Counted from the stretch's first letter, positions 4,590-42,147 are shown. The stretch is DNA of 64,000 nucleotides from an uncultured bacterium (GCA_963713955.1 OY970216.1:209934-273933), one strand, 5' to 3'. Notes: generated by a model not told the origin, from the sequence alone. A program made the numbers and translations.

Positions 4590-5090
4590 TTAGTATACAG
4601 AAAGAGTAATCTGCTTTGCAACAAAGCTGCCGGACGTCCTGATGTTTGAATCAGTGGTGATTACAACGACGTCGCCGCTCTTGAGGTCGGAAACGCTGAG
4701 GGAAGATTGAAGGGGCATTCCGGATTTATTCATTTTCGAATAATCCAATTTCACTATTTTCGTATTTTGATCGATAACTACCGTTTTCGCGACTTGCTTC
4801 TTGGGAGAGTTATCAAGGTGTGGAAGGTAGTCGCTTGGATCGTCCATCGAAATCGTAAGGTTGTTGCCCTGTATGCTTGTTATTTTGGTTCTCACTTGTG
4901 TAAGTACTGCCGGCGGCTCTGGAAAAGCCGCGTTTACTATCGGCTGGTATTTGGCTTCCGTCGCCGACGTGCCAGCCTGCTTGCCGTTCTCATTTCCGAT
5001 CCAGAATCCTATCAGAAATACGGCAACCGCTACCACGATACTCCCGACCGTTAAGATCGCTATTTTGTTTTTTGATTGTATTGGTTCCAT
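4590..5090 (-). CDS. Membrane-anchored hypothetical protein (one N-terminal TM helix, extracytoplasmic domain).
   Basis: 166 aa. Hydrophobic ILTVGSIVVAVAVFLIGFWIG near the N-terminus. No recognisable catalytic motif. Confidence 0.45.
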   Translation of the reverse strand: MEPIQSKNKIAILTVGSIVVAVAVFLIGFWIGNENGKQAGTSATEAKYQPIVNAAFPEPPAVLTQVRTKITSIQGNNLTISMDDPSDYLPHLDNSPKKQVAKTVVIDQNTKIVKLDYSKMNKSGMPLQSSLSVSDLKSGDVVVITTDSNIRTSGSFVAKQITLSVY

Positions 5091-5241
5091 ACCCTCTATT
5101 ATAGCACACGTATACCAAGAAAGTCTTCCAGTTTTCCCCTTAGAGGTGGTCCCGCCTCAAGGCCTTTTGAGCGCGCACGCGCGGGCGTGGTCTCTAACGG
5201 GGTGAATGTGCTATAATCTTTATGAGCTAAGAAAGTTTGCC

Positions 5242-6291
5242 ATGAAGAAACTATTTTCAAACCCGCTTTTCCATCTGGCTATTATCCTCTTTGTGGTTTT
5301 GGGATTGGAGGGGTACTTGATGGTTCATGCGCAATATATGCCGCCGGCAAACCAGCCGCCGTTTGATAGTTCTTATCCGCCACTTGATACGGGTTCTTCT
5401 CTACAGACCAAGTCAGGAAGCTTGGTGGTAGGCAATTCGTCTCAGGCGTTGCGGTTGCAATTGTCGCCAGCGGGCATTCAATGGGTTGACAGTAACGGCA
5501 ATGTAAGTAGTTCTATGACTTATGACATTAATCTGCAGGGCATAAGGGTAACTGCTGGGGGTTACTCTTCGGTCTTGGGGTATAATTGGCAATCATCCAA
5601 CGGCGGAGCTCTCATTTCCAATGGACCTCTTGTCGTTGGTGCGTCTAATCCTAATTCAGTGTCCAGTTTGAGCAGTGGTAATTTGGTAATCCCTGATTTA
5701 TCTGTCGTTGGTCCGGATGGGTCAAGTAGTTTGAATTTTTACGCGAACCCGCTGGGAAATGAAAACAGGCAAGGCTTGGGGCCGGTTATTTTGTCAGGGG
5801 GGTATTTTTCGACAAATTCTATGCTCGCCAAAAACGGCAATACTGCCGTTACGGGTCCAGAGTCGGGCATATTTGTCAACCCGGCCGGTGGTTTTATTGC
5901 CCTGGGAACCAGTATAGGTAGCACAAAGGATAGTTCTTTCAGCAACAGCTCTCTGTATTTTGCTGGACCAGTGTTAAAAATCTATGCGAACGGAGATGTG
6001 GATGCTCTGCAGGGTTCAGTCGAGTATGCAAGACCACCGGACTCAGCCAATGCGAGTGTTTTCTCAAAAATTGTGGCCGGTGGCGTCTCCGCCAACAGCC
6101 AGTTAATGACGCAATTATATAACAATACGTCCACTTATAATAATGACGTCCAGATTGTTGATCAGTCGGGAAGCATGGTCGAAAACTGCCCCGATGGATA
6201 CTTTGTGAGCGGTGTTGCATTTGGTCACGGTAAAAATGATACCAAGGAGGCGATAATGCTAATGTGCGCGCGTATGTTCCCATCGTTTTAA
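5242..6291 (+). CDS. Secreted paralog 1 of a tandem three-gene family (N-motif DTGSSLQTKSGSL, C-terminal CPDGYFVSG...C).
   Basis: Signal-peptide-like MKKLFSNPLFHLAIILFVVLGLEGYLMVHAQ (start 5242 by codon arithmetic; the ORF track starts at 5206). Shares N- and C-terminal motifs with the next two ORFs. Confidence 0.6.
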   Translation: MKKLFSNPLFHLAIILFVVLGLEGYLMVHAQYMPPANQPPFDSSYPPLDTGSSLQTKSGSLVVGNSSQALRLQLSPAGIQWVDSNGNVSSSMTYDINLQGIRVTAGGYSSVLGYNWQSSNGGALISNGPLVVGASNPNSVSSLSSGNLVIPDLSVVGPDGSSSLNFYANPLGNENRQGLGPVILSGGYFSTNSMLAKNGNTAVTGPESGIFVNPAGGFIALGTSIGSTKDSSFSNSSLYFAGPVLKIYANGDVDALQGSVEYARPPDSANASVFSKIVAGGVSANSQLMTQLYNNTSTYNNDVQIVDQSGSMVENCPDGYFVSGVAFGHGKNDTKEAIMLMCARMFPSF

Positions 6292-6294
6292 GTT

Positions 6295-7791
6295 ATGAAA
6301 AATTATCTGCCAATATTTTTGTTCGTCATCCTGATGTCAATCGCGTTCGCCTTTATCGCGCAAGCGATCAATGTTCCGCTTGATACCTCTTCAGCACCGC
6401 AGTCCAAGGCTGGTTCTCTACATTTTACTTCTTCCAGTATGGATTCCTATATCGGTGATCTCACAGGAGGTGATGTGTTGGGATTTGGCAATGGCGGTTC
6501 TTACGCGACTCTGAGACTCTCCAATGGAGTGTTTAGTGTTTTTTCACCTGCCCTGAATCAAAACTCTGAGGTGCCATTGTGGTTTGCCACGACAACCGGA
6601 ATTTATACGCCCCAAAACCTGTTTGTCACCACGAGTTCACTCGTTGGCAGCATCCCGGCGGATGCCAGTTCTTTAGAGATTTTGGGATTCACCCCGCTGC
6701 CTCCCGATAGTGGTAGCTACTGCGGTAACCAGTCGTACGGCGACAGATTGTTCGGCTGTTCTTCCACGACGCCGAACGTAGGTCTTTATGGTAGCTCATC
6801 GTGGGGTGAGGGAGCGATACTCTTTAATTTGTTTGCGAGTTCAACGGACGGATATGCAGCTAATTGGCCGGTGTCACCGGTAAATGGTAATCAGTCTTCG
6901 TTTGGGATCCTATTTGGTAATGCGTTGGGCAACGGTTTGTCGATAAACGCGTCGGCGCCATTAACCCAGGCTCAAAAAGATAATCAGAAAACTATCAGGG
7001 ATGTCTGGCGTGCAGGGCTTATGCTTGGTTTTGACGGAAGTGCTGTTTTAGGTGCACCTCCGTCCAGCGCAGAATATGCTTTTGAGATAATAACGAATAA
7101 AACCTGCGATGTCGGCAGCGGATGTACCGGGTTTGTAAAGATTGCCTCGAGTTCAGAAGACTTCTTCCGGTATGGTACTTCTGTGACTGCTGGCTATCCG
7201 GCGTACTTCGGCGCAAGAGAAAACTATGCCAGCGGAACGATCGGCTATTGTGATGACTGTACGACAAGCAATTTGAAACCGGAATATAGGTACAAGCGAA
7301 TAATGCAGCCAGCTGATACTACCGTTCGCGCACTCGACGTAGATTTGCTGAATCCATCGTGGAGTAACTGGTGGACCAGTTCGGCGGATCAGGATTGGTT
7401 AAATACTTTAAATCAGTTGGGACAAGGTATCACATGTGCGGGTACTAATAGCAAAGCGGTAAGTCAAAACGGGGCAGGCGGCATTATATTCTGGCCGACG
7501 GGGAGCGTCATTTGTAATTATGCGGGCGGTGGAGCATCGGCGCAGAGGATTTTTGAAACAAGTAATACGAGCTCTCATTACCTTGAGCCAGACTGGACTG
7601 ATTATAATCATATGACAACGAATTCAAGTCCAACATTTTTCACGAATACGTGGGCAACATGCCCACCAGGCTATTTTGTAAAAGGTATCAAGTATGGTAA
7701 ACGCACGTTGGCAACAAAGGGAGGAAGTCTCTTGGGAGAGAATTATTACGACGGTATAGTCCCATCAATAATGTGCGACAGATTGTGGTAG
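6295..7791 (+). CDS. Secreted paralog 2 (N-motif DTSSAPQSKAGSL, C-terminal CPPGYFVKG...C).
   Basis: 498 aa. Signal peptide MKNYLPIFLFVILMSIAFAFIAQA. Ser/Gly/Thr-rich, many Cys. Conserved motifs shared with flanking paralogs. Separated by 4 nt from paralog 1. Confidence 0.6.
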   Translation: MKNYLPIFLFVILMSIAFAFIAQAINVPLDTSSAPQSKAGSLHFTSSSMDSYIGDLTGGDVLGFGNGGSYATLRLSNGVFSVFSPALNQNSEVPLWFATTTGIYTPQNLFVTTSSLVGSIPADASSLEILGFTPLPPDSGSYCGNQSYGDRLFGCSSTTPNVGLYGSSSWGEGAILFNLFASSTDGYAANWPVSPVNGNQSSFGILFGNALGNGLSINASAPLTQAQKDNQKTIRDVWRAGLMLGFDGSAVLGAPPSSAEYAFEIITNKTCDVGSGCTGFVKIASSSEDFFRYGTSVTAGYPAYFGARENYASGTIGYCDDCTTSNLKPEYRYKRIMQPADTTVRALDVDLLNPSWSNWWTSSADQDWLNTLNQLGQGITCAGTNSKAVSQNGAGGIIFWPTGSVICNYAGGGASAQRIFETSNTSSHYLEPDWTDYNHMTTNSSPTFFTNTWATCPPGYFVKGIKYGKRTLATKGGSLLGENYYDGIVPSIMCDRLW

Positions 7792-7809
7792 ACAAAAATA
7801 GCAAAAATT

Positions 7810-9138
7810 ATGAATACAAATAAAATCCTAACAATTTTCGCATCAGTTCTGCTAGTTGCCGTGCTTTTTACCTGGAGAGCTATGGCCTACAATGAGCCAA
7901 GCTATCCCGCACCAGGCGGATCGGTAAATTCGGCGATAGACACCGGCCCCTATGCCCAGAGTAAAAGCGGTCGGCTCGACATTAACATAAACGGGGGTGA
8001 TCTTGTTTTGTCTACGTCATCCATGCCCCAGATCCAGTTCAGCGACAGCGGAGGGGAGGGCATTTTAGAAATGGCCCAAATACCCAATGTTGGTTATGTT
8101 CCTTCGCTTCAATGGAGTACCAATCCGCCGGTGGCTTTAGCGGGTGAGTGGTATGTAACGTCGACTCAAGGTGGTACTATCTTCTCCTACTCACCTTATA
8201 ATGTTGGTATATCAATCCCGCCTTTTACTAGTGGTCCTTCTCAAAGCGCTCTCGGTGAGCTGGTGATGGGAGATGGGAGCAATGCTGGGCTGGTTCTCAA
8301 TGCGGGAAACGGTGGAAACTACATAACATACGGCGCTCATTATGATAATTCGTCAGCGAGTTTAGGTTGGATAGCTAACTCTTCTTCGGGAAATTATCAT
8401 CCGATGCAGATTTATTTCTCGGGAGACGGCAATCAGCTGGCCTTGAGAGTCGGAGATTCCCAACCTGATACCAGTGTACTATGGAAGAGTTCGCTGGCTA
8501 TTGATTCTTCGAATTCTACTATAACATTCAGTGATAGGTATGCAGGTACTGTCATGGGCCCTCATTTTGAATATATGCCGCAAAGCATTCCGTCCGGAGC
8601 GACCGCGACAGATTATACCCAGCAGTTCCTGAGTAGTAATCCTAACGTTAAATCTTATACCGATATATCGGGAAATAGATGTATGGCCTATACGGAGAAC
8701 TTTCCCACTATTATCTCTTCGCCTCCGTCTAACTTGTGCAATGCTTCTGACTTTGGGAAGGATATATATGCCTATCTCAACCATGCTCAGTATGATGAGA
8801 ACGATAACCTCACCTGTGGTCTCACGGCTTACTACCGGTGTGTCGCCGATCAACAGGATCCTCGGAATAACACTTCGAAACTTTACGTCGGTGTTTTGGA
8901 GTTGAAAGACCAAAAATGGAGCGGCACAGTGGAAGCGAGTACGACTATAAGTGGCGATGCGCTCGAATTGAAACTCGGCAATTCATATTACGATTCCTGG
9001 GTCATGTGTCCAAACGGCTATTTCTTGAGTGGAATACACACCTCTGTCTTAAGTAAATCAGGACAATCAACGAGTTACAATATAGTCAACGATGGAAAGA
9101 ATGTAAATGATGCTTACATAGAATGCAGCAAATTATAG
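7810..9138 (+). CDS. Secreted paralog 3 (N-motif DTGPYAQSKSGRL, C-terminal CPNGYFLSG...C).
   Basis: 442 aa. N-terminal hydrophobic ILTIFASVLLVAVLF. Same conserved terminal motifs as paralogs 1 and 2. Confidence 0.6.
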   Translation: MNTNKILTIFASVLLVAVLFTWRAMAYNEPSYPAPGGSVNSAIDTGPYAQSKSGRLDININGGDLVLSTSSMPQIQFSDSGGEGILEMAQIPNVGYVPSLQWSTNPPVALAGEWYVTSTQGGTIFSYSPYNVGISIPPFTSGPSQSALGELVMGDGSNAGLVLNAGNGGNYITYGAHYDNSSASLGWIANSSSGNYHPMQIYFSGDGNQLALRVGDSQPDTSVLWKSSLAIDSSNSTITFSDRYAGTVMGPHFEYMPQSIPSGATATDYTQQFLSSNPNVKSYTDISGNRCMAYTENFPTIISSPPSNLCNASDFGKDIYAYLNHAQYDENDNLTCGLTAYYRCVADQQDPRNNTSKLYVGVLELKDQKWSGTVEASTTISGDALELKLGNSYYDSWVMCPNGYFLSGIHTSVLSKSGQSTSYNIVNDGKNVNDAYIECSKL

Positions 9139-12716: not shown

Positions 12717-12727
12717 TCTTGTTCAAG

Positions 12728-12764
12728 GAGGTTCAGCTTAAAAACTGAACCTCTTTTCCGTTTT
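12728..12764 (+). terminator. Terminator hairpin gaggttcag-cttaaaaa-ctgaacctc plus ttttccgtttt. Copy 1 of a repeated terminator; the second copy is at about 19070.
   Basis: Perfect 9-bp stem immediately after the BNR gene stop, then a T-run. A near-identical element (cttgttcaa[a/g]gaggttcag...ctgaacc..ttttccgtttt) recurs at 19061-19108. Confidence 0.55.
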
Positions 12765-25454: not shown

Positions 25455-26777
25455 TCACTTCAAAAGCAGCATCTTCTTCGTCAGTGACAACCCATCAGAG
25501 GTTGTCAGACAATAGAAGTATGTGCCCGACGGAAAGTGACTTCCGTCGAACTGTACGACACGAATTCCTGGAGAAACAGTACCGTCCACCAATGTCGCTA
25601 CTTCTTGCCCGAGAACATTGTAAACCTTGAGGGTCACAAATGTTCTCAAAGCAACCGTATAGCTGATCGTCGTGGTCGGGTTGAACGGGTTCGGGTAGTT
25701 CTGGTTCAGGGTGAAGCCGTAGGGCTGGTTTGTTGTCGCATGGACTGCGGTTATAACACCATCGACACGCCACAGACCATTGGTAGTGCCGACGAGAAGC
25801 GAATGATTCTGAATCGCCAGACTCATCACTCCGATGGGAATGCCATTGATGCTATTTGGTACTACTTGCGTCCATCGTGCTCCGTCGTATTTGAATACAC
25901 CACCAGTTGCCGATCCCTGCCCACTGAAGCCGACGAAAATGGTATTCTTCTGGCCCACGAGAATAGTGGTCGCCTCTTTCTGAGACGAATCTATTCCTGT
26001 GATTTTCGTCCAGGTACCGCCGTTATCAATCGACTGATACACACCATCACCGGTACCGGTGAATGGGTTTCCGGTTCCGGCGTATAGGACACCGTTACTG
26101 TCAGCAGCTATGGCCTCAACATCTTGGAAGTTGATACCATTATCACTAGGCTGCCACGTTTTCCCTTCATTGGTGGAACAGAAAACGCTCGCACTATTCG
26201 CAATATTAACTGTCCCAGCAAAGATGAAACCTCTCGTATACACCAGAGTATTCACATACAGCGTGCTATCGTAGAAGATAGTTTTCCAATTTTCGCCGCC
26301 ATCAAATGATTGTAGGATGCCACCAGAAATGCCAGCCATAATTGCATCTCCTCTGATCAGGAAACATGTGATTGACGCACTATGCTTCCACGTTGTATAG
26401 GGTGACGGTGGAGAAGGTTGGGTCCAGCTTGAACCATTGTCGGTGGAACGGAATAACCCGTTCACGGTCCCGACAAGTATAGCGTTGGTCTTGGGATCGC
26501 GAACGACCGCATAGCTATAACGAGACCACCAATCGAGATTGATAGGCAATTGGGTCCATACTGCACCGTCATCCGTCGTCTGCATTATGCCCATATCAGC
26601 GGTAGCGGCAAGTATGTCATTGCTATCGCCGTCAACCCATAGTGAATTGACATTGATGCTCTGACCTATAAGACTGTCCGGCCAGATGTACGAGTAGGAA
26701 ACAGACGTACTGGATTGGCTTCTCGCGGACGAGATGCCAATCAGTACGGCTGCGAGAAACAATCCAATATTTTTCAT
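25455..26777 (-). CDS. Second BNR/Asp-box repeat beta-propeller protein with a T9SS C-terminal sorting domain. Start at MKNIGLFLAAVLIG.
   Basis: Signal peptide. Asp-box repeats (TTDDGAVWTQ, STDNGSSWTQ, SFDGGENWKT, STNEGKTWQP, SIDNGGTWTK). C-terminus LNQNYPNPFNPTTTISYTVALRTFVTLKVYNVLGQEVATLVDG...SGTYFYCLTTSDGLSLTKKMLLLK. 32 nt of the CTD coding sequence are identical (inverted) to gene 11418. Confidence 0.75.
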   Translation of the reverse strand: MKNIGLFLAAVLIGISSARSQSSTSVSYSYIWPDSLIGQSINVNSLWVDGDSNDILAATADMGIMQTTDDGAVWTQLPINLDWWSRYSYAVVRDPKTNAILVGTVNGLFRSTDNGSSWTQPSPPSPYTTWKHSASITCFLIRGDAIMAGISGGILQSFDGGENWKTIFYDSTLYVNTLVYTRGFIFAGTVNIANSASVFCSTNEGKTWQPSDNGINFQDVEAIAADSNGVLYAGTGNPFTGTGDGVYQSIDNGGTWTKITGIDSSQKEATTILVGQKNTIFVGFSGQGSATGGVFKYDGARWTQVVPNSINGIPIGVMSLAIQNHSLLVGTTNGLWRVDGVITAVHATTNQPYGFTLNQNYPNPFNPTTTISYTVALRTFVTLKVYNVLGQEVATLVDGTVSPGIRVVQFDGSHFPSGTYFYCLTTSDGLSLTKKMLLLK

Positions 26778-26872
26778 TTTCAACTCCTTTCTAAACTCTA
26801 TTATAACATAAATGCTCAATCTTTGCAACAAAAAGGCGATACGGTAAAAGAATATATGCTATAATACAAGAA

Positions 26873-29812
26873 ATGAGAAAAATACTACTATTTTCTCTAT
26901 CCATGTTGCTCCTCTACGGGGTGAGCAAGGTTTTTGCCTCGAACCTCGTCTCAAACTTCCAAGCAAATCCAACGAGTACCGGCGTTCAGGTACAGTGGGT
27001 GAATAACGGCAAGTATGAATACCAGGTGCTTACGAGATCAGATATCGTCCCGCCTATTCAACCATTGCAAACATACAAGAATCCCTCGGCGGGTTTACAA
27101 AGTTTTATCGATCCAAATCTCCCCACGACTCAGTCGGTACCCGGCGGTACGGTGGGTACGTATGCATATAAACTGCAGACGACTGACGCGAGCGGTAATC
27201 AAGTTCCTGATACCGCTTCTCTCGAGTACGCCGATTCGGAAGTCAAGTCTGTCACTACGCTCAGTAGTTACCAGTATTCGGCTTCTTGTCTTTCTGCCAC
27301 TCAATCCTCGATAACGGTGGGGTGGAACACGAATGATCCGAATGTCTCAGGCGTCACCTTGCAAAACGACAATCGATCACCCTATACAGGACTACTACCG
27401 TCGGGGAGCCAAGTAGACGGCGGTCTCACAAACAACACTTCTTACAATTATTCCGTCTCATTTGACAATAGCCATGGCTATACGATAGGGACTTCAACGG
27501 TAACGTGCCAAACGGGCGGCTCGAGCATCTATACTTATCTGTTCTCTTGCGGACCTTCTACGACTTCGAGCGTCACGTTGAGCTTCATCACTGCCGACCC
27601 GGCGGTAAGTTACATAAACATAAGCGGCGACTCTGTGCCAGGGAGAACGGCAAATCAACAGGTGTCGCCTCCTTGGGTGGCAAGCTACGTTGTGCCGAAT
27701 CTTTTACCGGGAACACTCTACTACTATACCGCGTCACTTGGGTATAATGGTTCACCAAATGGTACTCCGCCGACGGGCAGCCCTTCTGCACCAACCCCCT
27801 CGGCGTTACAGTGCCCGACTAAAGTCAATCAAGCCGCAACCACTCTCTCGGACGCGCCGAGCATGGCGCAGGCGTTCGCGAGCGATCCCTCGACGATCTA
27901 TCTCAACTGGAAAGACAACGCGACGTCAACCGCGGGATCGTATGAGTTTGTGGTGCAGCGGATGCAGATGACGCCGAATGTCCCGACATCAACCACGGCC
28001 GCCGCAGTCGAGGACAACTCCAACAACCTGTCGGTCAACGTGAACTGGAAAGATCTCACCACCTCGACGCCGTACTATGCGGTCGTCGAGCGGAGCACCG
28101 ATCCTTCCTTTGTGACCGCGACCTTTTTCCACTACGAAGGGGAAGTCGCCGATCTTGCGACGACGACCGCCGGCAGCTATACGCCGAATCCCGGCGACCA
28201 GAACCTCCATCCTTTTACCAATCCCGATAGTTCCGTAAGCGAAGCGACGACATACTACTACCGTGTCCGGGCATGTTCCCAGCTGGGCCTCGGCGGGTAC
28301 TACGCGTCGGGCGTTGGGAGCGAGATATTGAACAGCGGCCCCGACGGAGAGCCGATGTACCCCTGCACATGGCTCTCACCCGCTTTCGGAACGACCACGC
28401 CGCCCCTCGCGCCGATGAGTCTCACCGCGGCGGTGGACGTGCAGAATCCGACAGGGAAGGTGAATCTGCACTGGATCAACCCCTCCAAGAAAGCTTCCTA
28501 CCTCGAAATAGAGCGCGGCAGTCAAATCATCGCCACGAATCTTTCCACGACCACGACGTCGTATCCGGACGACAATAACGGCAACGGCTTGTCGGCGGGA
28601 ACATCCTACTCGTACGGCGTGAGAGCGTGCTACAACGTTGCCAAGGACTACGTGACGGGGGCGAGTTCCACTGCTTGCTCGAACTGGAGCGCTTCGGCGG
28701 CCACTACCACCAACTTCGTGGTGAACGTAGCGAGGAGCGGGACTGGCGGGGGGACGGTAATGAGCGACCCCTCCGGCATCAGTTGCGGGAGCACATGTTC
28801 GGCGAATTTCCCCGCCGGCACGTCGGTCGTGCTCTCGGCGACTCCTGACGGGAATTCGACGTTCGCCGGATGGGGCGGTGACTGCTCCGGAACGGGAACC
28901 TGCACCGTCTCTGGCAACACGAACGCCACCGCGACCTTCAATTCGAACAATAACACTCTTACCGTTGCGCTAAGTCCCCAGGTTGGGGCAGCTAATGTAG
29001 CTAAAGTTACCATCAATGCAAACGGCAGTAACGTCGTTGTTAGCACCAGTACAACCTTGAATTTGCCCTTGGGAACCCAAGTTACATTAACCGCCTGGTC
29101 CGATACGTCTCTTTATACATTCTCGAGCTGGACAGGTGACGCTTGCAATAATCAAACAGGTTTGGTTTGTACATTCATTTTTGATGCACCCTCTCAAGCA
29201 ACCGCAAACTTCGTCCACACAGTGGGATATAATCCCGATAATCTCATGGCTTCGTTGATGAGAATGATATCATCTACGATTAATTCGTCTCGCAACTTTG
29301 CAGAAAGCTTGACCGGAGGTATCTCTCGCATCGCAGGGAGCGTTGCGTCCGGCTTCAGCAAGGCAGTGGCTTACTTAACATCCCCGTCTACAGCCGAGGG
29401 CCAGACAGCGAGCGACAACGCCACCTACAATCCCTACTTTACAACTACCACCGTTATCACAAATACTGCGAGTCCGTACTGGCAAGATACAAACCTCCTG
29501 CCGGACACCACGTACGTGTATCGGGTGAAGGTTCTCTATAATGATGGGAGAGCGAGCGATTGGTCGAATTGGGCTGCGGCGAAAACGCTCTATAACAACA
29601 GTGGTGTCTCAGTTGGATTCATGCCCATTTGCACAGCGAACAGCGTTTGTAGGAGTGATATTCCAGGCGTGCAATCATCCGATTTGGGCCACTTCAACCG
29701 CAACCCGCAACTGAGTGGCCAGCAACCAGTCGAGAAATCCGAGCGGCAGTGCACGACGAACGCCGACTGCGTGAACGTGGGGCGGGTGAATCAGCTGTTC
29801 CAGGAGAAGTAG
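26873..29812 (+). CDS. Giant secreted surface protein (979 aa) with Fn3-like modules and divergent InlB B-repeat domains. Internally mosaic in composition.
   Basis: Signal peptide MRKILLFSLSMLLLYGVSKVFA. Fn3-like units (SATQSSITVGWNTND..., SAPSMAQAFASDPSTIYLNWKDN...). Classic InlB-B-like unit VVNVARSGTGGGTVMSDPSGISCGSTCSANFPAGTSVVLSATPDGNSTFAGWGGDCSGTGTCTVSGNTNATATF and a second one after it. Extended -10 promoter tatgctataat upstream. Confidence 0.65.
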   Translation: MRKILLFSLSMLLLYGVSKVFASNLVSNFQANPTSTGVQVQWVNNGKYEYQVLTRSDIVPPIQPLQTYKNPSAGLQSFIDPNLPTTQSVPGGTVGTYAYKLQTTDASGNQVPDTASLEYADSEVKSVTTLSSYQYSASCLSATQSSITVGWNTNDPNVSGVTLQNDNRSPYTGLLPSGSQVDGGLTNNTSYNYSVSFDNSHGYTIGTSTVTCQTGGSSIYTYLFSCGPSTTSSVTLSFITADPAVSYINISGDSVPGRTANQQVSPPWVASYVVPNLLPGTLYYYTASLGYNGSPNGTPPTGSPSAPTPSALQCPTKVNQAATTLSDAPSMAQAFASDPSTIYLNWKDNATSTAGSYEFVVQRMQMTPNVPTSTTAAAVEDNSNNLSVNVNWKDLTTSTPYYAVVERSTDPSFVTATFFHYEGEVADLATTTAGSYTPNPGDQNLHPFTNPDSSVSEATTYYYRVRACSQLGLGGYYASGVGSEILNSGPDGEPMYPCTWLSPAFGTTTPPLAPMSLTAAVDVQNPTGKVNLHWINPSKKASYLEIERGSQIIATNLSTTTTSYPDDNNGNGLSAGTSYSYGVRACYNVAKDYVTGASSTACSNWSASAATTTNFVVNVARSGTGGGTVMSDPSGISCGSTCSANFPAGTSVVLSATPDGNSTFAGWGGDCSGTGTCTVSGNTNATATFNSNNNTLTVALSPQVGAANVAKVTINANGSNVVVSTSTTLNLPLGTQVTLTAWSDTSLYTFSSWTGDACNNQTGLVCTFIFDAPSQATANFVHTVGYNPDNLMASLMRMISSTINSSRNFAESLTGGISRIAGSVASGFSKAVAYLTSPSTAEGQTASDNATYNPYFTTTTVITNTASPYWQDTNLLPDTTYVYRVKVLYNDGRASDWSNWAAAKTLYNNSGVSVGFMPICTANSVCRSDIPGVQSSDLGHFNRNPQLSGQQPVEKSERQCTTNADCVNVGRVNQLFQEK

Positions 29813-30097: not shown

Positions 30098-30856
30098 TTA
30101 AGTCCTGGCGGCGGTAATGGCGATGATCTTCCGGGCGCCGTTCTTTTTGAGGAGCGCGGTGATTTCCGTGATCGTCGCACCGGACGTGAAAACGTCGTCA
30201 ACGACGAAGAAATTCCGCCCGGCAATCTCGGCGCCGCGCCGGACACTGAAAGAACCTTTCACATTTTCTCTCCGTTCTTTGTACGATTTTTGTTCCGTCT
30301 GCGATTTTGCCTTCCGGGATTTTACTAGGATATTTTCCTCTATCTCGAATTTCGGAAACGCGCCCCCGGCATCCATCTCCCCGATGAATCTTTTGAGATT
30401 CCGGGCTATGAGGAGAGATTGATTGAAACCTCTCCGCCTCTCTTTCGACGGGTGGAGCGGGACGGGAATCATCGTGAAATCCCCCTCGATCGGCTTTCCG
30501 GAGTTGAGAAACGTTTTGAGGAGATAGCCGGTCGTGAAGAACGCAAGCGGTACGGCCGCTTTTTTCACTCCGTCGTACTTCAGGACATGGATGAGCTTTT
30601 GGGTTGCCGATTCTTCGAACTTCAAGGGTGAGGCGAGGACGAATTTCGCGGAGCCGTGGCAGGTAACCTCCCGGGAAGGGAGTCTCCTCTTGCAAATTGG
30701 GCAGAAGAAACCATACGGGTAGGAGAATTTTTCCCTGCAGGAGCGGCAGAGCGAGAGTTCTCGTTCGTCTTTCTGAAGGATCTTTTCGCAGACGAGGCAA
30801 ATCGGCGGGAAAACTGCGTCGAAAAACGATTTCGCGAACTCGCTTAGCCCCTTCAT
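30098..30856 (-). CDS. comFC: ComF-family protein (ComFC-like phosphoribosyltransferase-domain competence protein).
   Basis: 252 aa. N-terminal zinc-finger-like PPICLVCEK...CRSC...CPIC. C-terminal PRTase motif NFFVVDDVFTSGATITE. Confidence 0.75.
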   Translation of the reverse strand: MKGLSEFAKSFFDAVFPPICLVCEKILQKDERELSLCRSCREKFSYPYGFFCPICKRRLPSREVTCHGSAKFVLASPLKFEESATQKLIHVLKYDGVKKAAVPLAFFTTGYLLKTFLNSGKPIEGDFTMIPVPLHPSKERRRGFNQSLLIARNLKRFIGEMDAGGAFPKFEIEENILVKSRKAKSQTEQKSYKERRENVKGSFSVRRGAEIAGRNFFVVDDVFTSGATITEITALLKKNGARKIIAITAART

Positions 30857-30885
30857 TTTGTGTTAAAATCATTATAACAAGCACC

Positions 30886-31989
30886 ATGAAGATAACCAGC
30901 GTTTTCTCGGATTTTTTCTCGGACGTTTTTAATTTCTTGAAAGCGAGGTTGGTTTTGGGTGTGGATATCGGCACCGCTTCGGTCAAAGTTGTGGCGGTCG
31001 GCGAGCGGGGCGGCAAGCTGAATCTTCAGAACTATGGAATCCTCGAAACCAGAGACTATCTCATCCATCCCGCGAAGGCGCTTCAGACAAGTTCCCTTCC
31101 CATTGATGAAAACGCGGCGGCTGAAGCACTCCGGATTCTCTTGAGAGAAGTTAAGCCGAAGACCGCGACGGCGGTAGCTTCAATACCGGCTTTTTCTTCG
31201 TTCGCGACGGTCATGGATATGCCTCTTCTTTCTCCGTCCGAAACGGCGAAGGCGGTCATGTTCCAGGCCCCCCAATATATCCCGATGCCGGTCGACGAGG
31301 TTACGATCGACTGGTTCAAGGTGGATGAATTCGCAAGCGATGCGGGGCAGAAGTATCAGCACGTTTTCGTCGTCGGCATTCCGAAAAGCGTGATCCAGAA
31401 ATACAAGAATATCCTGAAAATGGCCGGATTAAAACTCGTCTCCCTGGAGTTCGACGGGTTGGCCCTCGTGCGGAGTCTCGTGGATTCCGGCGACGATGAA
31501 ACCATTATCGTCGACATCGGCGCCGAAGAAACCGACATATTCATAGCCTCGCGGGGGCATTTGGAATACCTCGGCGAAACCGATTACAGCGGGATACACC
31601 TCACCCAATCGGTCGGCAGAAGCCTCGGCATAACCACGATGAGAGCGGAAGAGTTGAAGCGGAGGAGGGGACTCCTGTCGGAGGGGCCCGAATCTGAGTT
31701 ATCAACATTAACTATTCCGTTCTTGGATGTTATAATACAAGAAGTGAACCACGTGCGGGATGTTTATAAGAGAAGGTACGGAAAGGAGGCAAAAAAGATA
31801 ATGCTCGTCGGAGGAGGGGCCAACTTGATAGGCGTGGGGCGGTATTTTTCAAAGCAGACGGGACTCATCGAAACTAAACCGAGCATTTTCAGAAAAGTTT
31901 CTTATGATCTGCGCTTGGAACCGGTCCTCGCGCAACTTGAGAATGAACTCCCCGTAGCCGTGGGTTTAGCCGAGCGGTACTTTGAGTAG
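30886..31989 (+). CDS. pilM: Type IV pilus assembly protein PilM (actin-like ATPase fold). Start at MKITSV; the ORF track gives 30697.
   Basis: LVLGVDIGTASVKVVAV..., IDWF..., IVDIGAEETDIFIA..., MLVGGGANLIGV are typical PilM/FtsA-like motifs. Sits upstream of pilN/pilO. Confidence 0.75.
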   Translation: MKITSVFSDFFSDVFNFLKARLVLGVDIGTASVKVVAVGERGGKLNLQNYGILETRDYLIHPAKALQTSSLPIDENAAAEALRILLREVKPKTATAVASIPAFSSFATVMDMPLLSPSETAKAVMFQAPQYIPMPVDEVTIDWFKVDEFASDAGQKYQHVFVVGIPKSVIQKYKNILKMAGLKLVSLEFDGLALVRSLVDSGDDETIIVDIGAEETDIFIASRGHLEYLGETDYSGIHLTQSVGRSLGITTMRAEELKRRRGLLSEGPESELSTLTIPFLDVIIQEVNHVRDVYKRRYGKEAKKIMLVGGGANLIGVGRYFSKQTGLIETKPSIFRKVSYDLRLEPVLAQLENELPVAVGLAERYFE

Positions 31990-32047
31990 CGATGCGAATA
32001 ACGAAGAAAATAAATTTGTATAATTAGTATATTAGCATCGATACACC

Positions 32048-32620
32048 ATGGACGAACAACAAAATCAACAAAGAACCAACGCAGGGGTAAGCGAACAGTT
32101 CTTGAGTAACCCGGTCACCATCGGCACGCCGTGGCGGCTTTTTGTGTTTTCAGTGCTTCTCTTCGCCTTCTCGCTTTTGGTCTACTTCGGGCTGAAAGTC
32201 GGATACGAAAATTATCTGCAGTCGAGGTCGGATGCCTTGGATCAGAACCTTTCCCAGCTTTCAAGTTCGATCAGCCAGGAGGACGAGCAAAATTTCATCG
32301 CGGTGTATTCCCAGATTGTAAACCTGAAAAGCGTTCTCGGGAGTCACCTCTTCAGCGAGAATATTTTCCCGTTTCTCGAGAAAGATACGCTCCCCCAGGT
32401 GAGTTACTCGGAAGCAAAGTTTTCGAGCGACACGCGCACGCTGGAGCTCACGGGGCAATCGGTTTCGCTCCAAATCTTGGCTGAACAGATGGCCGAGTTC
32501 GAGAAAGCCTCGGAACTCGAGAGCGCGGTTCTTTCGGGAATGAATTTCAACCCCGGCGGCAACACCTCCTTCACCATAACCTTGACCTTCAAGGGCGATT
32601 ATTTGTCGAAGCCGGTGTAA
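32048..32620 (+). CDS. pilN: PilN-like pilus assembly protein (single TM, coiled-coil periplasmic region).
   Basis: 190 aa. TM RLFVFSVLLFAFSLLVYFGL after a short cytoplasmic N-terminus. Position between pilM and pilO. Confidence 0.55.
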   Translation: MDEQQNQQRTNAGVSEQFLSNPVTIGTPWRLFVFSVLLFAFSLLVYFGLKVGYENYLQSRSDALDQNLSQLSSSISQEDEQNFIAVYSQIVNLKSVLGSHLFSENIFPFLEKDTLPQVSYSEAKFSSDTRTLELTGQSVSLQILAEQMAEFEKASELESAVLSGMNFNPGGNTSFTITLTFKGDYLSKPV

Positions 32621-32627
32621 CCCTACC

Positions 32628-33206
32628 ATGAAAGCATCAACCAAAAGGGCTCTCAGCATTCTCTTCTCGCTTTTCTTTCTCATAGCGACCATCGTCGTCT
32701 ACACGAGCCTCATACAACCGGAGATTGGCGCCGCGAGTCAGTTGCAATCCGTCGTCGCTTCCAAGACCAACGCTTACCAGAATCAGAAAAACGCGGTATC
32801 TCAGGTTTCAAAGCTTATTAGCCAGTTCCAGAATGCGGGTTCACTCGAAAACACTCTTTCACTCGCGATGCCGATAGGGCCGAGCGTAACACAAGCCCTG
32901 AACCAGTGGTACACGGTTTCACAGACGAGCCAAGCGAGCGTCCAGACACTCGACATAAAAGTCGGGAACGCTTTCATCCAATCCAGCCAGCCTCTGGCCA
33001 AAGGCATGGGGACCGTGACCGTCGATCTGGGACTCCTCGGGACGTACGATTCGTTGAAGCAATTTTTGACCTCGATTGAGTCGAACGCGAGAGTGATCAA
33101 CGTCGATTCCCTGGACCTGAGGCCGGTGCAGTCGCAAAGCACGGCGGGCGGCGGGTCGCTCTACTCGCTCGGCCTCACCGTTGATACGTATTATCAATCG
33201 AACTAA
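32628..33206 (+). CDS. pilO: PilO-like pilus assembly protein.
   Basis: 192 aa. N-terminal TM ALSILFSLFFLIATIVVY, coiled-coil then periplasmic domain. Synteny. Confidence 0.5.
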   Translation: MKASTKRALSILFSLFFLIATIVVYTSLIQPEIGAASQLQSVVASKTNAYQNQKNAVSQVSKLISQFQNAGSLENTLSLAMPIGPSVTQALNQWYTVSQTSQASVQTLDIKVGNAFIQSSQPLAKGMGTVTVDLGLLGTYDSLKQFLTSIESNARVINVDSLDLRPVQSQSTAGGGSLYSLGLTVDTYYQSN

Positions 33207-33338
33207 TCCCTCACCCTTCGAGAATCGCGTATAATAAGAACAAAGACTACTATGAATAAGTTAAAAAACACAAATTTGAGACCAATAAGTAAAATGCTTC
33301 TTCGTCGCGAAGCCGAATCAATTCTTGAAGGGTGAGGG

Positions 33339-33629
33339 ATGGCGATCATCGTTGAACAAGAGAAGAAGCCGGTGAATTGGGTGAACGTCGTGGCTATCGT
33401 GGTTTTCGTGGTCCTGGTTTTCGCCGTGGCCTATTTCGTGTTTTTCAACAAGCCGGAACTCATCGACGTCGTTTTGCCGGGCGGACTCAGGAACATCAAC
33501 ACGTTGTCGCAGGTTCAGGTGGATCCGTCGCCCGTGGTCACGACGCTCCAGAAGTATTTCACGACCAACTACAATTCACCGATCACGATTCCGACTCCCG
33601 GCCGCACCAACCCCTTCGCGCCATTCTAA
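33339..33629 (+). CDS. Small membrane protein (96 aa) between pilO and pilB. Possible PilP-like or accessory pilus component.
   Basis: TM helix VNVVAIVVFVVLVFAVAYFVFF. Flanked on both sides by the tccctcacccttcgag / cttcgaagggtgaggg inverted repeats. Confidence 0.4.
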   Translation: MAIIVEQEKKPVNWVNVVAIVVFVVLVFAVAYFVFFNKPELIDVVLPGGLRNINTLSQVQVDPSPVVTTLQKYFTTNYNSPITIPTPGRTNPFAPF

Positions 33630-33754
33630 TCCCTCACCCTTCGAGGATCGCTTTGAGTCATTTTGGGAAGTACATGAAATTGGAGATTGTCGTAAAAAAG
33701 CTGAGAGAGAAAACTCCGAAGCCGCGGAGTTTATTAATCTTCGAAGGGTGAGGG

Positions 33755-35485
33755 ATGACCGATCAAGAATTAGTCAAAAAACTGGTTGAAAAGAAGCTGA
33801 TTTCGGAGCAAATCGGCTCGAGGATTTTGCGCGACGCCGAACTTCGGGGGCAGTCGGCGGAAGAAATGATTTATCAAAGCCGACTGGCCGATGAAACAGC
33901 CGTCGCGAAGGTGAAAAGCGAGCTCCTTGGCGTACCATACAAGAAAGTAGACGTGGGTGCGGTGACGAGCGATCTCATCGCTTTCATTCCCAAGGAAACG
34001 TCGAAAACCTACCAGGTTATTCCGCTCGAGAAAAACGGCGATATGCTGGTCGTGGGAATGCTCCGGCCCGACAGTTTGCAGGCGCAGGAGGCTCTGAAAT
34101 TCATAGCCAAGCAGGAACGGCTGAGTCTCGGCGTTTACCTCGTGACTCCTTCGGACATGGCGGCGGTGTGGAGGAAGTATGCGCCGTACAAAACCGAAGT
34201 CGAGTCAGCCGTGGAGGAAATCGGGAACGTGAGACAGGCTGATTCCTTCGCGGTTTCGCTCGAAGAAGAAGGAGGAACCGGCGAGGACGCGCCGATCATA
34301 AAAATAGTCGCCTCGACGCTCCGGGAGGCAGTCGAAGAGAAAGCTTCGGACATTCACATAGAACCGCAGCGGCTCCGGCTTCGCGTACGGTTCCGGATCG
34401 ACGGCGACCTCAAGGAAGTCGCTTCCCTCCCTCTTTCCTTGAGCCAACCCGTCATTTCGCGCGTCAAGGTTTTGGCAAGATTGAAACTCGACGAGACGAG
34501 GATTCCCCAGGACGGAAGGTTCAGGACTTTGATTTCCGGGAGGGATATTGATTTCAGGGTGGCGACGTTCCCGACTCCTTCAGGCGAGAAAGTGGTTTTG
34601 CGCGTTCTCGATCCGACAACCGGTCTCAAGGGTCTCCCGGAACTGGGGCTTAGCGATTACAACTTCAAGATATTGGAAGAGGCGCTCGGGTCTCCGTACG
34701 GCATGGTTTTGATCACCGGACCCACGGGTTCCGGCAAGACGACCACGCTCTACGCGATCATGCAGAAAATCAATTCCGAAAAGGTGAATATCGTGACTCT
34801 CGAGGATCCCGTCGAGTACTTCATGGATGGGATCAACCAATCTCAGGTAAAACCCGAGATCGGCTATGATTTTTCTTCCGGCCTCCGGCAGATTTTGCGG
34901 CAGGATCCGGACATCATCATGGTCGGCGAGGTCAGGGATTCGGAGACCGCCAATTTGGCCGTGAATGCGGCCTTGACCGGACACCTTATGCTCTCGACTC
35001 TTCATACCAACAATTCCATCGGCGTCATTCCGCGGCTCATCGATCTCGGCGTGCCGGGATTTCTTCTTGCGTCTTCCCTGAATCTCATGCTCGCCCAACG
35101 TCTCGTGGGGAGGCTGTGTCCCGAGTGCAAGAAGGAGCGGCCGGTGTCCGCCGGTCTTGAGAAAGTGGTGGAGGAATCTCTCGCGAAGCTTCCCGAAAGC
35201 GTGCGTGCGGGCCTCAAGTACAAAAAGCCCTACTCCTCGTGGTATGTCGAGCCGAATCCGAGTTGCAACGTCTGCAACGGGAAGGGGACGGTGGGGAGGG
35301 TGGCGGCATTCGAAATCTTCAGGATGACGAGGGAATTGGTGGACATCGTAAGCCGAGGATTCACCGAGAACGCGCTCATCGACGAGGCAAAGCGGCAGGG
35401 CATGGTCTCGATGAGAGAAGACGGCGTCCTGAAAGCACTTCAGGGCGAAGTGATGCTGGAAGAAGTGGTGAGGGAAACGGAGTAA
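33755..35485 (+). CDS. pilB: Type IV pilus assembly ATPase PilB (GspE family).
   Basis: 576 aa. N-terminal GSPII-like domain. Walker A GPTGSGKTTTLYA. Asp box and His box (TLEDPVEY..., LRQDPDIIMVGEVRD, STLHTN). Tetracysteine CPECKK...CNVCNGKG. Confidence 0.9.
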   Translation: MTDQELVKKLVEKKLISEQIGSRILRDAELRGQSAEEMIYQSRLADETAVAKVKSELLGVPYKKVDVGAVTSDLIAFIPKETSKTYQVIPLEKNGDMLVVGMLRPDSLQAQEALKFIAKQERLSLGVYLVTPSDMAAVWRKYAPYKTEVESAVEEIGNVRQADSFAVSLEEEGGTGEDAPIIKIVASTLREAVEEKASDIHIEPQRLRLRVRFRIDGDLKEVASLPLSLSQPVISRVKVLARLKLDETRIPQDGRFRTLISGRDIDFRVATFPTPSGEKVVLRVLDPTTGLKGLPELGLSDYNFKILEEALGSPYGMVLITGPTGSGKTTTLYAIMQKINSEKVNIVTLEDPVEYFMDGINQSQVKPEIGYDFSSGLRQILRQDPDIIMVGEVRDSETANLAVNAALTGHLMLSTLHTNNSIGVIPRLIDLGVPGFLLASSLNLMLAQRLVGRLCPECKKERPVSAGLEKVVEESLAKLPESVRAGLKYKKPYSSWYVEPNPSCNVCNGKGTVGRVAAFEIFRMTRELVDIVSRGFTENALIDEAKRQGMVSMREDGVLKALQGEVMLEEVVRETE

Positions 35486-35502
35486 GTGCTATTATTACCA
35501 CA

Positions 35503-36582
35503 ATGGCAACAGATTCTAATAAACAAAGACTGAACAATCTCTTGGTCATGACCGCGAAGCAGAACGCATCGGATCTGCACTTGGCCGTCGGGAGGAGGCC
35601 GACCGTGAGAGTCGACAGCGTCTTGATCCCGATAGCCGAGGAGCCGATCTTGACCAAGGAAGATGCGGAGGGACTCGTGTTCGCGCTCTTGACCGAGGAG
35701 CAGAAAGTTTCTTTCCTTGATCGGAAACAGCTTGATTTTTCGTATAATTACGAGGACAAGGCCCGATTCCGGGTGAACGCATATTTCCAGCGGGGATTCG
35801 TGGCCGCGGCGCTTCGCTTGATACCGGGCGAGATAAAGACGGTGGAAGAATTGAATCTGCCGCCGATACTCCACGATTTCACGAAGTTGAACCAGGGATT
35901 CATTCTCGTCGTGGGGCCCGCGGGGCACGGAAAGTCAACGACCTTGGCCGCCCTCCTCGACGAAGTGAATCACAGGAGAAATGATCACATCATCACCATC
36001 GAAGATCCGATCGAATACATATTTTCCCAAGACCGGTGCATCATCTCGCAGCGGGAAGTCGGGGCCGACACGATTTCTTTCAATTCGGCGCTCCGGGCGG
36101 TCTTGCGACAGGATCCGGACGTTATCATGATCGGCGAGATGCGCGATGCCGAAACGATCGCGACGGCCATGACGGCCGCCGAAACGGGTCACTTGGTGTT
36201 CTCAACGCTCCACACCAATTCTGCTTCGCAAACCATCGACCGGATCATCGACAGTTTTCCCCCGAACCAACAGGGACAAATCGTTTCCCAGCTCGCCTCA
36301 ACCTTGGTTGCCATCGTTTCCGAACGGCTAATACCCAGGATGGGGGGCGGGAGAATACCTTCGATGGAAATCATGATCGTGAATCCCGCCATAAGGAACC
36401 TCGTACGGGAACGGAAGATTTATCAGATAGATTTGGTGATAGAGACGAGCGTTCAGGAAGGCATGATATCCTTGAACCGCTCCCTCGTGAACCTCATCAA
36501 AAAGAAGGAAGTATCTCTCGAGCAAGCCGAGTCGTATTCGCTGAACCCGGCGGAGCTCAGAATACTTTTGGAAAGGACGTGA
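35503..36582 (+). CDS. pilT: Twitching motility ATPase PilT. The ORF track's longer 35239 start is an out-of-context frame extension overlapping pilB.
   Basis: LHLAVGRRPTVRVDSVLIP, RFRVNAYFQRG, Walker A VGPAGHGKSTTLAALL, ITIEDPIEY, VLRQDPDVIMIGEMRD, FSTLHTNSA. The PilB stop at 35485 is 18 nt before the ATG at 35503. Confidence 0.9.
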   Translation: MATDSNKQRLNNLLVMTAKQNASDLHLAVGRRPTVRVDSVLIPIAEEPILTKEDAEGLVFALLTEEQKVSFLDRKQLDFSYNYEDKARFRVNAYFQRGFVAAALRLIPGEIKTVEELNLPPILHDFTKLNQGFILVVGPAGHGKSTTLAALLDEVNHRRNDHIITIEDPIEYIFSQDRCIISQREVGADTISFNSALRAVLRQDPDVIMIGEMRDAETIATAMTAAETGHLVFSTLHTNSASQTIDRIIDSFPPNQQGQIVSQLASTLVAIVSERLIPRMGGGRIPSMEIMIVNPAIRNLVRERKIYQIDLVIETSVQEGMISLNRSLVNLIKKKEVSLEQAESYSLNPAELRILLERT

Positions 36583-36696
36583 TATAATGAAAGCTATATA
36601 ACACCAACAACGCGAACATATGCGAACAACACGAACGGCTAAGTACATTTGTGTCATTCGTGCGGTTCGTATTGTGCAGTTTGCGTCATTCGTGCC

Positions 36697-37902: not shown

Positions 37903-37984
37903 AGTAATCGCCAATGATGCGAATGACTGCAAATAACGCGAATATGATATAATAAGAACAAATGGTCGATGAATAAAAAAACAA

Positions 37985-38371: not shown

Positions 38372-38378
38372 GCATAAG

Positions 38379-39331: not shown

Positions 39332-39461
39332 GATGTAATATTATTAAACAATCCAGATGGTGAGAAAATATTTTTCTAAATCAGGCTTTACCCCGCACCG
39401 AGCCAAGCGCTGCAACGCTCTCGCGTTTTCAACAATGACAAGGGATAAGCTGGAACCAACA

Positions 39462-39986: not shown

Positions 39987-40110
39987 ACATGCCCCGTAGG
40001 ACAACTTCGAACGGGGTATTTCGGAGCGTTTACTTAAGGATTGGGGAGTGAGCTAAGGTCCCGTAGAGAGTTAAAAGGTCTATCATGCAAACAAGAAATA
40101 ATTCGAAGTT

Positions 40111-41022: not shown

Positions 41023-41038
41023 GGTATAATAAACCCTA

Positions 41039-42081: not shown

Positions 42082-42147
42082 ACTTTGTAATATGTTTTTT
42101 GGAATTCATTTCAAAACACCTCTCTGGGTGAAAAAATGCGTGAGGAT

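Follow-up and report, generated by a model that had tools for sequence, protein, structure and literature searches.

Three tandem genes of a probable Patescibacteria bacterium encode divergent members of an unannotated family of putative surface proteins

Introduction

What is the role of three adjacent bacterial genes whose products resemble each other only at their two ends? This question is raised by P1, P2 and P3, three consecutive genes in a stretch of 64,000 nucleotides from an uncultured bacterium (GCA_963713955.1 OY970216.1:209934-273933), which was analysed at its full length and is referred to here as the window. An earlier, sequence-only reading of this DNA had recognised the shared terminal motifs, assigned the proteins to no described family and suggested that they form a diversifying set of surface or fibre-like proteins. 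The question bears on the ultrasmall Patescibacteria, or candidate phyla radiation (CPR), in which host recognition and adhesion are a central open question and, besides type IV pili, only a few of the molecules involved have been identified. Judged by their sequences, P1-P3 are divergent members of a large, so far unannotated family. We further argue, with a probability that we put at roughly 0.55, that they are exported surface proteins of a CPR family, which act together with the product of the adjacent gene P4 in adhesion.

Results

Terminal modules and family membership

Each of the three proteins starts with a hydrophobic helix followed by the motif [PA][LI]D(T)x5-Q-x-K-x-G-x-L (the N-module) and ends with a Cys-bracketed CPxGYFxxG...C motif (the C-module). 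In a six-frame translation of the window, the regular expression CP.GY[FYW]..G has exactly three matches, one per gene and at the expected C-terminal ends, where 0.0016 would be expected from residue frequencies. Likewise, D[TS]....Q[ST]K[SA]G.[LIV] occurs exactly three times, once in the N-terminal part of each gene product (0.0002 expected), and 200 additional shuffles produced no match to either pattern. The existence of three consecutive same-strand genes with shared terminal motifs, as described in the sequence-only reading, is thus well founded. In pairwise BLASTP comparisons, the similarity among P1-P3 is confined to the two terminal modules (E 3e-4 to 7e-3), with the remainder not being alignable. 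The three proteins are rich in Ser, Gly, Asn and Thr, contain even numbers of Cys residues (2 in P1, 10 in P2 and 6 in P3), stop 2-7 residues past the last Cys and possess AxA-like putative cleavage sites behind their N-terminal helices (VHA↓Q in P1, AQA↓I in P2 and AMA↓Y in P3, read by eye from the sequence). These features agree with the secreted or surface type proposed earlier, and the best-supported reading is that P1-P3 are exported surface proteins stabilised by disulfide bonds. Neither a sortase signal (LPXTG, transmembrane segment and basic tail) nor a YadA-type beta-barrel anchor was found in P1-P3 when Pfam, NCBIfam and the C-termini were inspected.

When 1.84 billion representatives were searched exhaustively by HMMER with a profile built from the three paralogs (E<=1e-3), 79 were retrieved, 76 of them beyond the three, and most of the 79 aligned over the N-terminal 60-90 residues. 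The family N-module consists of a hydrophobic helix, usually ending in Ala, and the sequence (W/F/Y)xEPxxxPPxGNVxxP(L/I)(N/D)x5QxKxGxL, with the consensus AWTEPSxxPPGGNVxAPLNxGxxxQxKxGxL. The K, Q and G of its QxKxG core are invariant or nearly so across the family, and in all but one of the 78 relatives (77/78) the Q of QxK falls between residues 36 and 79, most often between 48 and 59. All three paralogs contain the elements that define the family, a hydrophobic helix and, 10-30 residues later, P(L/I)(N/D)x5-Q-x-K-x-G-x-(L/I/F), with the N-module of P1 diverging more from the CPR consensus than that of P3. The parts past the N-module are extremely diverse, and the members range in size from 66 to 2477 aa. 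A shared export or anchoring tag, as envisaged previously, is a description that fits the N-module well.

The N-module is not covered by any Pfam or NCBIfam model in P1-P3 or the 78 relatives. P1-P3 themselves gave no match in these two libraries at E<=1 and nothing significant among the PHROGs (best E 0.13, for P3), and no PDB sequence matched the full-length, N-module or C-module profiles significantly. The best PDB hit of the C-module profile, granulin (E 0.18), reflects a trivial CPDGY match. A search of the literature on the motif strings and on CPR fibre, adhesin and type IX secretion system (T9SS) topics did not return a description of the family. Since no Pfam, NCBIfam, PHROG or PDB match places P1-P3 and their 78 relatives in a described family, the earlier statement to this effect holds. 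As a separate candidate, we considered a likeness of CPxG(F/Y)xxxG...C to one repeat of vitelline membrane outer layer protein I (VMO-I); it is unsupported, with the VMO-I beta-prism appearing neither in Pfam at E<=1 nor in the comparison of the C-module profile with the PDB at E<=10.

Some relatives carry recognisable domains outside the N-module, including Peptidase_S74 (3 members), Gp34_trimer, YadA_head, Peptidase_G2 IMC, DUF1554 and MopE, and some also match models of trimeric autotransporter adhesins. S74 or other recognised fibre domains are present in just 3-5 of the 78 relatives. This association with fibre and adhesin domains lends support to the fibre and adhesin candidates named in the sequence-only reading.

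The C-module is found in a subset of the family. An alignment of 34 distinct copies, in which the two Cys residues and a Gly are invariant, places the pattern C-P-x-G-(Y/F)-(F/Y/L)-x2-(G/A)...C in the last 25-45 residues, followed by another 2-16 residues, and P1-P3 fit this pattern. Judged by eye, the C-module occurs in 917 kb of related loci only in proteins that also possess the N-module; the rows marked 'noN' by the survey script are motif variants, one truncated open reading frame (ORF) and one unrelated loose match. All 24 both-module members (24/24) share a near-invariant Trp (W116) upstream of a degenerate NVGIGxxxPxxxLxV element. A scan of genome contigs with the C-motif pattern gave 13 matches, of which none was confirmed. 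In word-indexed protein searches, the P2 query retrieved only itself and a 24-sequence alignment retrieved six proteins; an artificial concatenate of N- and C-module alignments retrieved nothing.

A scan of genomes with the canonical N-module pattern produced 98 confirmed hits at 77 loci, nearly all of them in metagenome-assembled genomes (MAGs) of Patescibacteria/CPR. Of these loci, 73 are labelled as CPR groups or plainly as 'bacterium', the CPR labels being Nealsonbacteria, Parcubacteria, Moranbacteria, Giovannoni-, Wildermuth-, Yonath-, Taylor-, Kaiser- and Tagabacteria, 'Saccharibacteria', Paceibacterota and Minisyncoccia. A metagenome scan with a degenerate pattern revealed at least four loci. 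This CPR-wide membership had escaped the sequence-only reading, as had the conserved partner gene described below. The four canonical-pattern loci labelled otherwise (L061, L073, L074, L077) are assigned to Gammaproteobacteria (with a 2477-aa ORF), Pirellulales, Elusimicrobiota and Bdellovibrionales, and they could represent binning errors or true transfers. The contig labelled Bdellovibrionales is of note in view of the mosaic adhesive trimer (MAT) fibres of Bdellovibrio.

AlphaFold2 models of the P1 and P3 monomers, based on alignments of 24 and 45 rows, respectively, have a mean predicted local distance difference test score (pLDDT) of 53.6 each and predicted template modelling scores of 0.25-0.29. 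Local plausibility is limited to the N-terminal helix, a few early strands and the hairpin at the C-terminus. In the P1 model, the helix spans residues 8-31 (pLDDT 80-95) and the C-module forms a beta-hairpin (320-329/336-344, pLDDT ~60); in the P3 model, the helix comprises residues 3-26 and a hairpin of low confidence residues 405-411/435-440.

The n-region and the start of the signal helix also show a pattern of their own, MKxLxxNP(F/L)F(Y/H)L (window 5245-5285, P1 residues 2-15), which is common to P1 orthologs and distant single-copy both-module genes (P0012-P0020, P0022, P0025, P0030, P0031). About 15 residues past this pattern, a Glu lies within the hydrophobic segment, which is unusual for a plain signal peptide.

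The conserved cassette and its partner gene

P1, P2 and P3 are followed by P4 and P5, and the five genes run co-directionally on the plus strand between 5.2 and 12.7 kb of the window. Related loci contain an ordered cassette, in which a ClpP gene and a gene for a transmembrane (TM) protein of 166-177 aa, both on the minus strand, precede P1-, P2-, P3- and P4-like genes on the plus strand. This arrangement was found in L001, L080/81/82, L083, L002, L089 and L088, the last of which is a short contig with the three paralog genes only, and thus in at least seven lineages, with the cassette genes being closely spaced or overlapping. Each paralog has its own orthologs, which align over the full length, and paralogs within one genome are alike at their ends only. 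Relative to the window copies, the orthologs are 46-48% (P1; L001, L081), 33-35% (P2), 32-35% (P3), 42-47% (P4), 45-61% (small TM protein) and 87-91% (ClpP) identical.

Since synonymous divergence (dS) is saturated between the window and its relatives, the ratio of nonsynonymous to synonymous divergence (dN/dS) was restricted to the closest orthologous pair (L081/L002). It amounts to 0.10-0.14 at a dS of ~1.3-1.4, compared with 0.03-0.04 for ClpP, and the dN of the cassette proteins is 2-4x that of ClpP. P1-P3 are genuine genes that evolve under purifying selection overall and faster than housekeeping genes. They are also ancient paralogs rather than a recent diversifying array, because they occur in the same order in at least seven lineages, have their own orthologs and show gene-wide dN/dS values of 0.10-0.14. 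The notion of a diversifying set is therefore not supported.

The same data bear on the possibility that P1-P3 are structural envelope proteins, building an S-layer or cell-wall matrix without specific binding, in which case the N-module would be a peptide that attaches them to the wall or S-layer. A core-like cassette, syntenic beside housekeeping genes in many lineages and under purifying selection overall, would suit such proteins, as would their secreted appearance and Ser/Thr/Gly/Asn-rich composition. However, they evolve fast relative to their neighbours, their relatives vary from 66 to 2477 aa and include receptor-binding fibre and adhesin modules, and neither SLH nor other known S-layer or wall-binding domains were found with Pfam and NCBIfam in P1-P3 or the 78 relatives. 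We consider this reading quite unlikely.

An N-terminus that is conserved and C-terminal parts that vary are also reminiscent of polymorphic toxin systems, so that P1-P3 could be envisaged as secreted effectors or toxins delivered to a host cell by means of a common N-terminal export tag. Yet, the orthologs align over their full length, with no C-terminal swapping seen, the spacers of 3-18 nt leave no small immunity-like gene after each paralog, and no toxin or enzyme domain was found in P1-P3 or the 78 relatives, which makes this explanation very unlikely. Even less probable is a prophage origin, in which P1-P3 would be remnants of tail-fibre genes from CPR phages. Some relatives do contain the S74 chaperone and Gp34_trimer domains typical of phage fibres, but the PHROG comparison mentioned above gave no significant match, no phage genes were found nearby, a scan of IMG/VR viral contigs with one peptide pattern detected no N-module, and the ClpP-adjacent chromosomal synteny is stable in at least seven lineages.

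P4 begins 6 nt past P3, and its orthologs follow the triplet in L083, L002 and L089. It matches Pfam Flg_new_2 (E 1.3e-8) and was previously called a 'giant' InlB-repeat neighbour, an overstatement for a protein of 716 aa. Its repeat region, which has no Pfam match, is characterised by GYAWS...(I/Y)GW(I/L)SF motifs and is homologous (E 1e-10) to a 506-aa protein (L041 8993-10513) encoded after the N-module gene in the pilus cluster of a Parcubacteria MAG. Proteins with at least three GYAWS/GWISF motifs are present in 29 of the 77 named loci, with PKD, Ig or Fn3 domains coming after the repeats. In 11-13 of 74 loci, a GYAWS-type gene on the same strand begins no more than ~170 nt past an N-module gene, and 13 further loci have one within 3 kb; as a rough estimate, immediate adjacency would be expected by chance in ~0.25 loci. 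By its sequence, the GYAWS...IGWISFN repeat region defines a second family, whose genes very often directly follow those of N-module proteins. That the pairing is conserved and the spacing tight suggests a joint action of P1-P3 with P4.

Type IV pili and the host organism

The window contains a complete type IV pilus cluster (30697-43211), which comprises PilM, two PilN/O-like genes, PilB, PilT, PilC, four tandem GFTLIE pilins, a prepilin peptidase and 3-4 minor pilins. No secretin was found in it, which is typical of monoderm/CPR pili. The window PilB and PilT proteins are 50-60% and LigA is 56% identical to those of named CPR MAGs. Based on the secretin-less cluster with its CPR-like pilins, on these identities and on contig sizes of 570-805 kb, we infer that the window stems from a Patescibacteria/CPR bacterium. 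Together, the secretin-less pilus cluster and the apparently CPR-specific family point to a cell without an outer membrane.

This assignment bears on another neighbour. P5 matches the T9SS C-terminal domain (CTD) model Por_Secre_tail with an E-value of 7.6e-11, in the same library runs that gave no such match for P1-P3, and its paralog on the minus strand (25455-26831; 31% identity, E 1e-42) is likewise a BNR/sortilin-type propeller with Por_Secre_tail. Propeller homologs with this T9SS type A CTD-like domain occur in the same position in L086/87 and in L085. The T9SS context invoked in the sequence-only reading could suggest that P1-P3 are T9SS-related cargo or partners, in line with the Por_Secre_tail domains of the two propellers. 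P1-P3 lack a CTD, however, and the genome is CPR-like with a secretin-less pilus, pointing to the absence of an outer membrane, so that the domain in P5 is itself unlikely to signal T9SS export. Among the readings considered, a link of P1-P3 to T9SS is the most improbable.

Type IV pilus genes are present in the flanks (<=8 kb) of 17 of the 77 N-module loci. In eight loci, the N-module gene lies co-directionally downstream of PilB-PilT-PilC; in seven of them (L003, L015, L020, L026, L043, L046, L058), pilin and prepilin peptidase genes lie in between and the co-directional cluster ends with the N-module gene, and in L041 it directly follows PilC, between PilC and the prepilin peptidase. In addition, the single-copy ortholog block of L086 is located 1.4 kb from PilM. 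The pilus connection contemplated earlier is thus supported by synteny in other loci, and this linkage suggests a role in host attachment.

The same observations underlie the strongest rival to our interpretation, according to which P1-P3 are dedicated pilus accessories, carried on the pilus or assembled by its machinery as tip adhesins or non-canonical minor subunits, and not surface fibres in their own right. The terminal or internal position of the N-module gene in pilus clusters, the proximity to PilM in L086 and the presence of a pilus cluster in the window are all in keeping with it. On the other hand, P1-P3 lack the class III signal peptide G↓F(T/S)LIE with Glu+5 that the real pilins of the window bear (at 37985-39986 and 41039-42826), 60 of the 77 N-module loci have no flanking pilus gene, and the cassette is situated 21 kb off the pilus genes, with its own promoter and terminator. 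We therefore regard a dedicated pilus function as unlikely, although it deserves more weight than any other alternative, and prefer the view that P1-P3 are surface proteins acting with P4.

Gene layout and further features of the window

The coordinates of the features are compiled in Table 1. The spacers measure 3 nt between P1 and P2, 18 nt between P2 and P3, 6 nt between P3 and P4, and 122 nt between P4 and P5, which may have its own promoter. The sequence-only lengths of 498 and 442 aa stand for P2 and P3. For P1, the 361 aa given previously correspond to an alternative start at 5206, and we place the start at 5242 (349 aa), because the ATG at 5206 sits within a conserved extended -10 element, TGnTAYAAT. 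The block GAA-T(G/A)TGnTA(T/C)AAT is kept in five related loci, 25-30 nt 5' of the ATG (MKK start). For P2, 6295 is the most likely start, since only this position yields a full-length signal segment as in the orthologs; a database call of 485 aa was rejected, as it would leave too short a signal peptide.

Table 1. Features of the cassette and its surroundings (window coordinates).
Feature	Position	Strand	Remarks
Small TM protein	4590..5090	-	166 aa, divergent; between ClpP and cassette in every related locus
Extended -10 promoter element of cassette, TGcTATAAT	5208..5217	+	direct reading and conservation
P1	5242..6291	+	349 aa: signal/anchor helix, N-module, Cys-bracketed C-module
P1 N-module QYMPPANQPPFDSSYPPLDTGSSLQTKSGSL	5335..5424	+	3' of putative VHA↓Q signal peptidase site; Q55, K57, G59 (nearly) invariant
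P1 C-module CPDGYFVSGVAFGHGKNDTKEAIMLMC, C316...C342	6187..6267	+	
P2	6295..7791	+	498 aa paralog, 10 Cys
P2 N-module INVPLDTSSAPQSKAGSL	6367..6420	+	shortened, Pro-rich stretch lost
P2 C-module, C456...C494	7660..7776	+	
P3	7810..9138	+	442 aa paralog, 6 Cys
P3 N-module YNEPSYPAPGGSVNSAIDTGPYAQSKSGRL	7888..7977	+	nearest of the three to CPR consensus WTEPSxxPPGGNVxAPLN..QxKxGxL
P3 C-module, C400...C439	9007..9126	+	
P4	9145..11295	+	716 aa putative partner: N-terminal TM helix, InlB B-repeats, GYAWS/GWISF repeat region (~aa 344-600)
P5	11418..12716	+	432 aa BNR/sortilin-type propeller, Por_Secre_tail-like C-terminal domain; final gene ahead of terminator
Terminator-like intrinsic hairpin, 12 pairs and T run	12725..12756	+	ends co-directional block
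Four tandem GFTLIE pilins	37985-39986		
Prepilin peptidase	40111-41022		

In the 166-aa protein, a TM helix at the N-terminus is combined with a small beta-rich domain; no family match was obtained for this protein. An inverted segment rich in GC, GAGCGCGCACGCGCGGGCG, is found in the divergent 150-nt intergenic region (5091-5241) between its gene and P1, upstream of the extended -10 box that is conserved; a comparable GC-rich stretch exists in L086.

In L086/87, the cassette position is taken by a single both-module gene. Downstream of it lie genes for an fn3/InlB protein of 1476 aa and for a BNR-Por_Secre_tail protein, then two genes on the opposite strand and finally PilM. In L085, a Por_Secre_tail protein is encoded immediately 5' of a both-module gene. 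In the window itself, the gene directly upstream of PilM (26873-29812) encodes a secreted protein of 979 aa, which contains Fn3-like repeats as well as InlB B-repeats and shares 28.5% identity over 501 aa with the 1476-aa protein of L086. This resemblance raises the possibility that an ancestral block was split by an insertion or rearrangement, represented by the region from 12.7 to 25.4 kb. The G+C content of the window rises from ~0.41-0.49 (1-26000) to ~0.50-0.56 (26000-64000), with a step near 26-28 kb and the lowest values (0.41-0.42) at 14-20 kb. The step may mark an island or reflect a contrast in composition between surface-gene and core regions.

Discussion

Our findings suggest a model in which the N-module acts as an export and docking handle that would fix each protein at the cell surface, while the very different extracellular parts attached to it would represent the functional, probably adhesive, portion. 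The most likely docking site would be the membrane-anchored GYAWS/GWISF-repeat protein P4. The C-terminal hairpin (25-40 residues, CPxGYFxxG...CxKL) may cap or nucleate the distal end, either as a foldon-like cap or as a distal binding tip. The three paralogs would then provide non-redundant heads on one base, which may act together with the type IV pilus in host-cell attachment. What is inferred here is the location at the surface, the cleavage of the signal and the oligomeric state, as well as the docking to P4 and the adhesive function.

Several points weigh against this model or limit it. P1-P3 themselves contain no fibre or adhesin domain recognisable by Pfam, NCBIfam or PHROG, and the AlphaFold models are too poor to give a fold or oligomeric state. 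Most N-module loci (60/77) lack flanking pilus genes, and in the window 21 kb separate the pilus cluster from the cassette. The taxonomy of the window was derived without a marker gene, given that no ribosomal or transfer RNA markers were found in the 64 kb. Moreover, the putative signal helix may be either cleaved or retained as an anchor, and a fully intertwined heterotrimer is disfavoured because the lengths of P1-P3 differ by 150 aa. Docking of the N-module onto P4, finally, is suggested by synteny, and we rate it as possible but doubtful.

Going one step further, it is tempting to speculate that the N-module constitutes a Patescibacteria-specific 'plug', a peptide for sorting and docking that joins interchangeable fibre or adhesin heads to a membrane-anchored GYAWS/GWISF 'socket' coupled functionally to the type IV pilus. 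This idea is more tentative still, and we think it rather unlikely to be correct in full. If true, plug and socket would form a modular surface display for host recognition without a described equivalent, with the Cys hairpin serving as a foldon-like oligomerisation cap or a receptor-binding tip. What the family offers in any case is a set of testable candidates for CPR host attachment, which spans many CPR classes and combines a near-invariant N-terminal handle and diverse extracellular parts with a partner gene and recurrent linkage to pilus operons. Its members probably belong to a kind already known, the bacterial surface fibres and adhesins; what is new here is the N-terminal handle and the C-terminal Cys hairpin. 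The signatures QxKxGxL, CPxGYF...C and GYAWS/GWISF can be used to annotate such loci in thousands of MAGs.

Comparison with known systems

With T9SS cargo, P1-P3 have only their neighbourhood in common, through the domain of P5. Their C-module is a Cys hairpin of 25-40 aa, whereas the T9SS domain is a beta-sandwich of ~75 aa, and the organism appears to lack an outer membrane. A parallel may also be drawn to PilY1/PilC-type adhesins and modular minor pilins, which share the distal position in pilus clusters and the predicted extracellular location. In contrast to these, P1-P3 lack a class III prepilin signal as well as PilY1 or vWA domains, and most copies of the N-module are unlinked to pilus genes.

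Phage fibres, as exemplified by the fibritin foldon and the S74 chaperone, resemble the family in two respects: some relatives contain Peptidase_S74, Peptidase_G2 IMC or Gp34_trimer domains, and the C-module is a short C-terminal beta-hairpin. The foldon of T4 fibritin has 27 residues. By analogy with this short element, the C-module could function in registration or oligomerisation. Unlike phage fibres, however, P1-P3 match no phage family, and their hairpin is bracketed by a predicted disulfide, with no recognisable protease domain to cleave it.

The closest functional analogue would be the MAT fibre family of Bdellovibrio bacteriovorus. In MAT proteins, a signal peptide is combined with an invariant N-terminal domain, which presumably attaches to the surface of the predator, and with variable tips, and S74 and non-S74 classes exist. 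The conserved beta-rich N-domain comprises ~130 aa, the trimers are built from 800-1100 aa, and tip structures have been solved (Caulton et al. 2024, PMC10769870). Searches of PDB sequences for a likeness to MAT, in a database that covers C-terminal MAT fragments only, yielded nothing. In contrast to MAT fibres, the N-module is a peptide of ~30 residues, the proteins are 350-500 aa in length and a trimer is only putative; no counterpart of the C-terminal Cys hairpin or of the GYAWS-protein partner has been described for MAT. Nevertheless, both are multi-paralog families in bacteria that live on other bacteria, the distal parts vary in both, next to a signal peptide and an invariant N-terminal element assumed to keep the protein on the producing cell, members with and without S74 occur in each, and for both a possible interplay with type IV pili has been raised.

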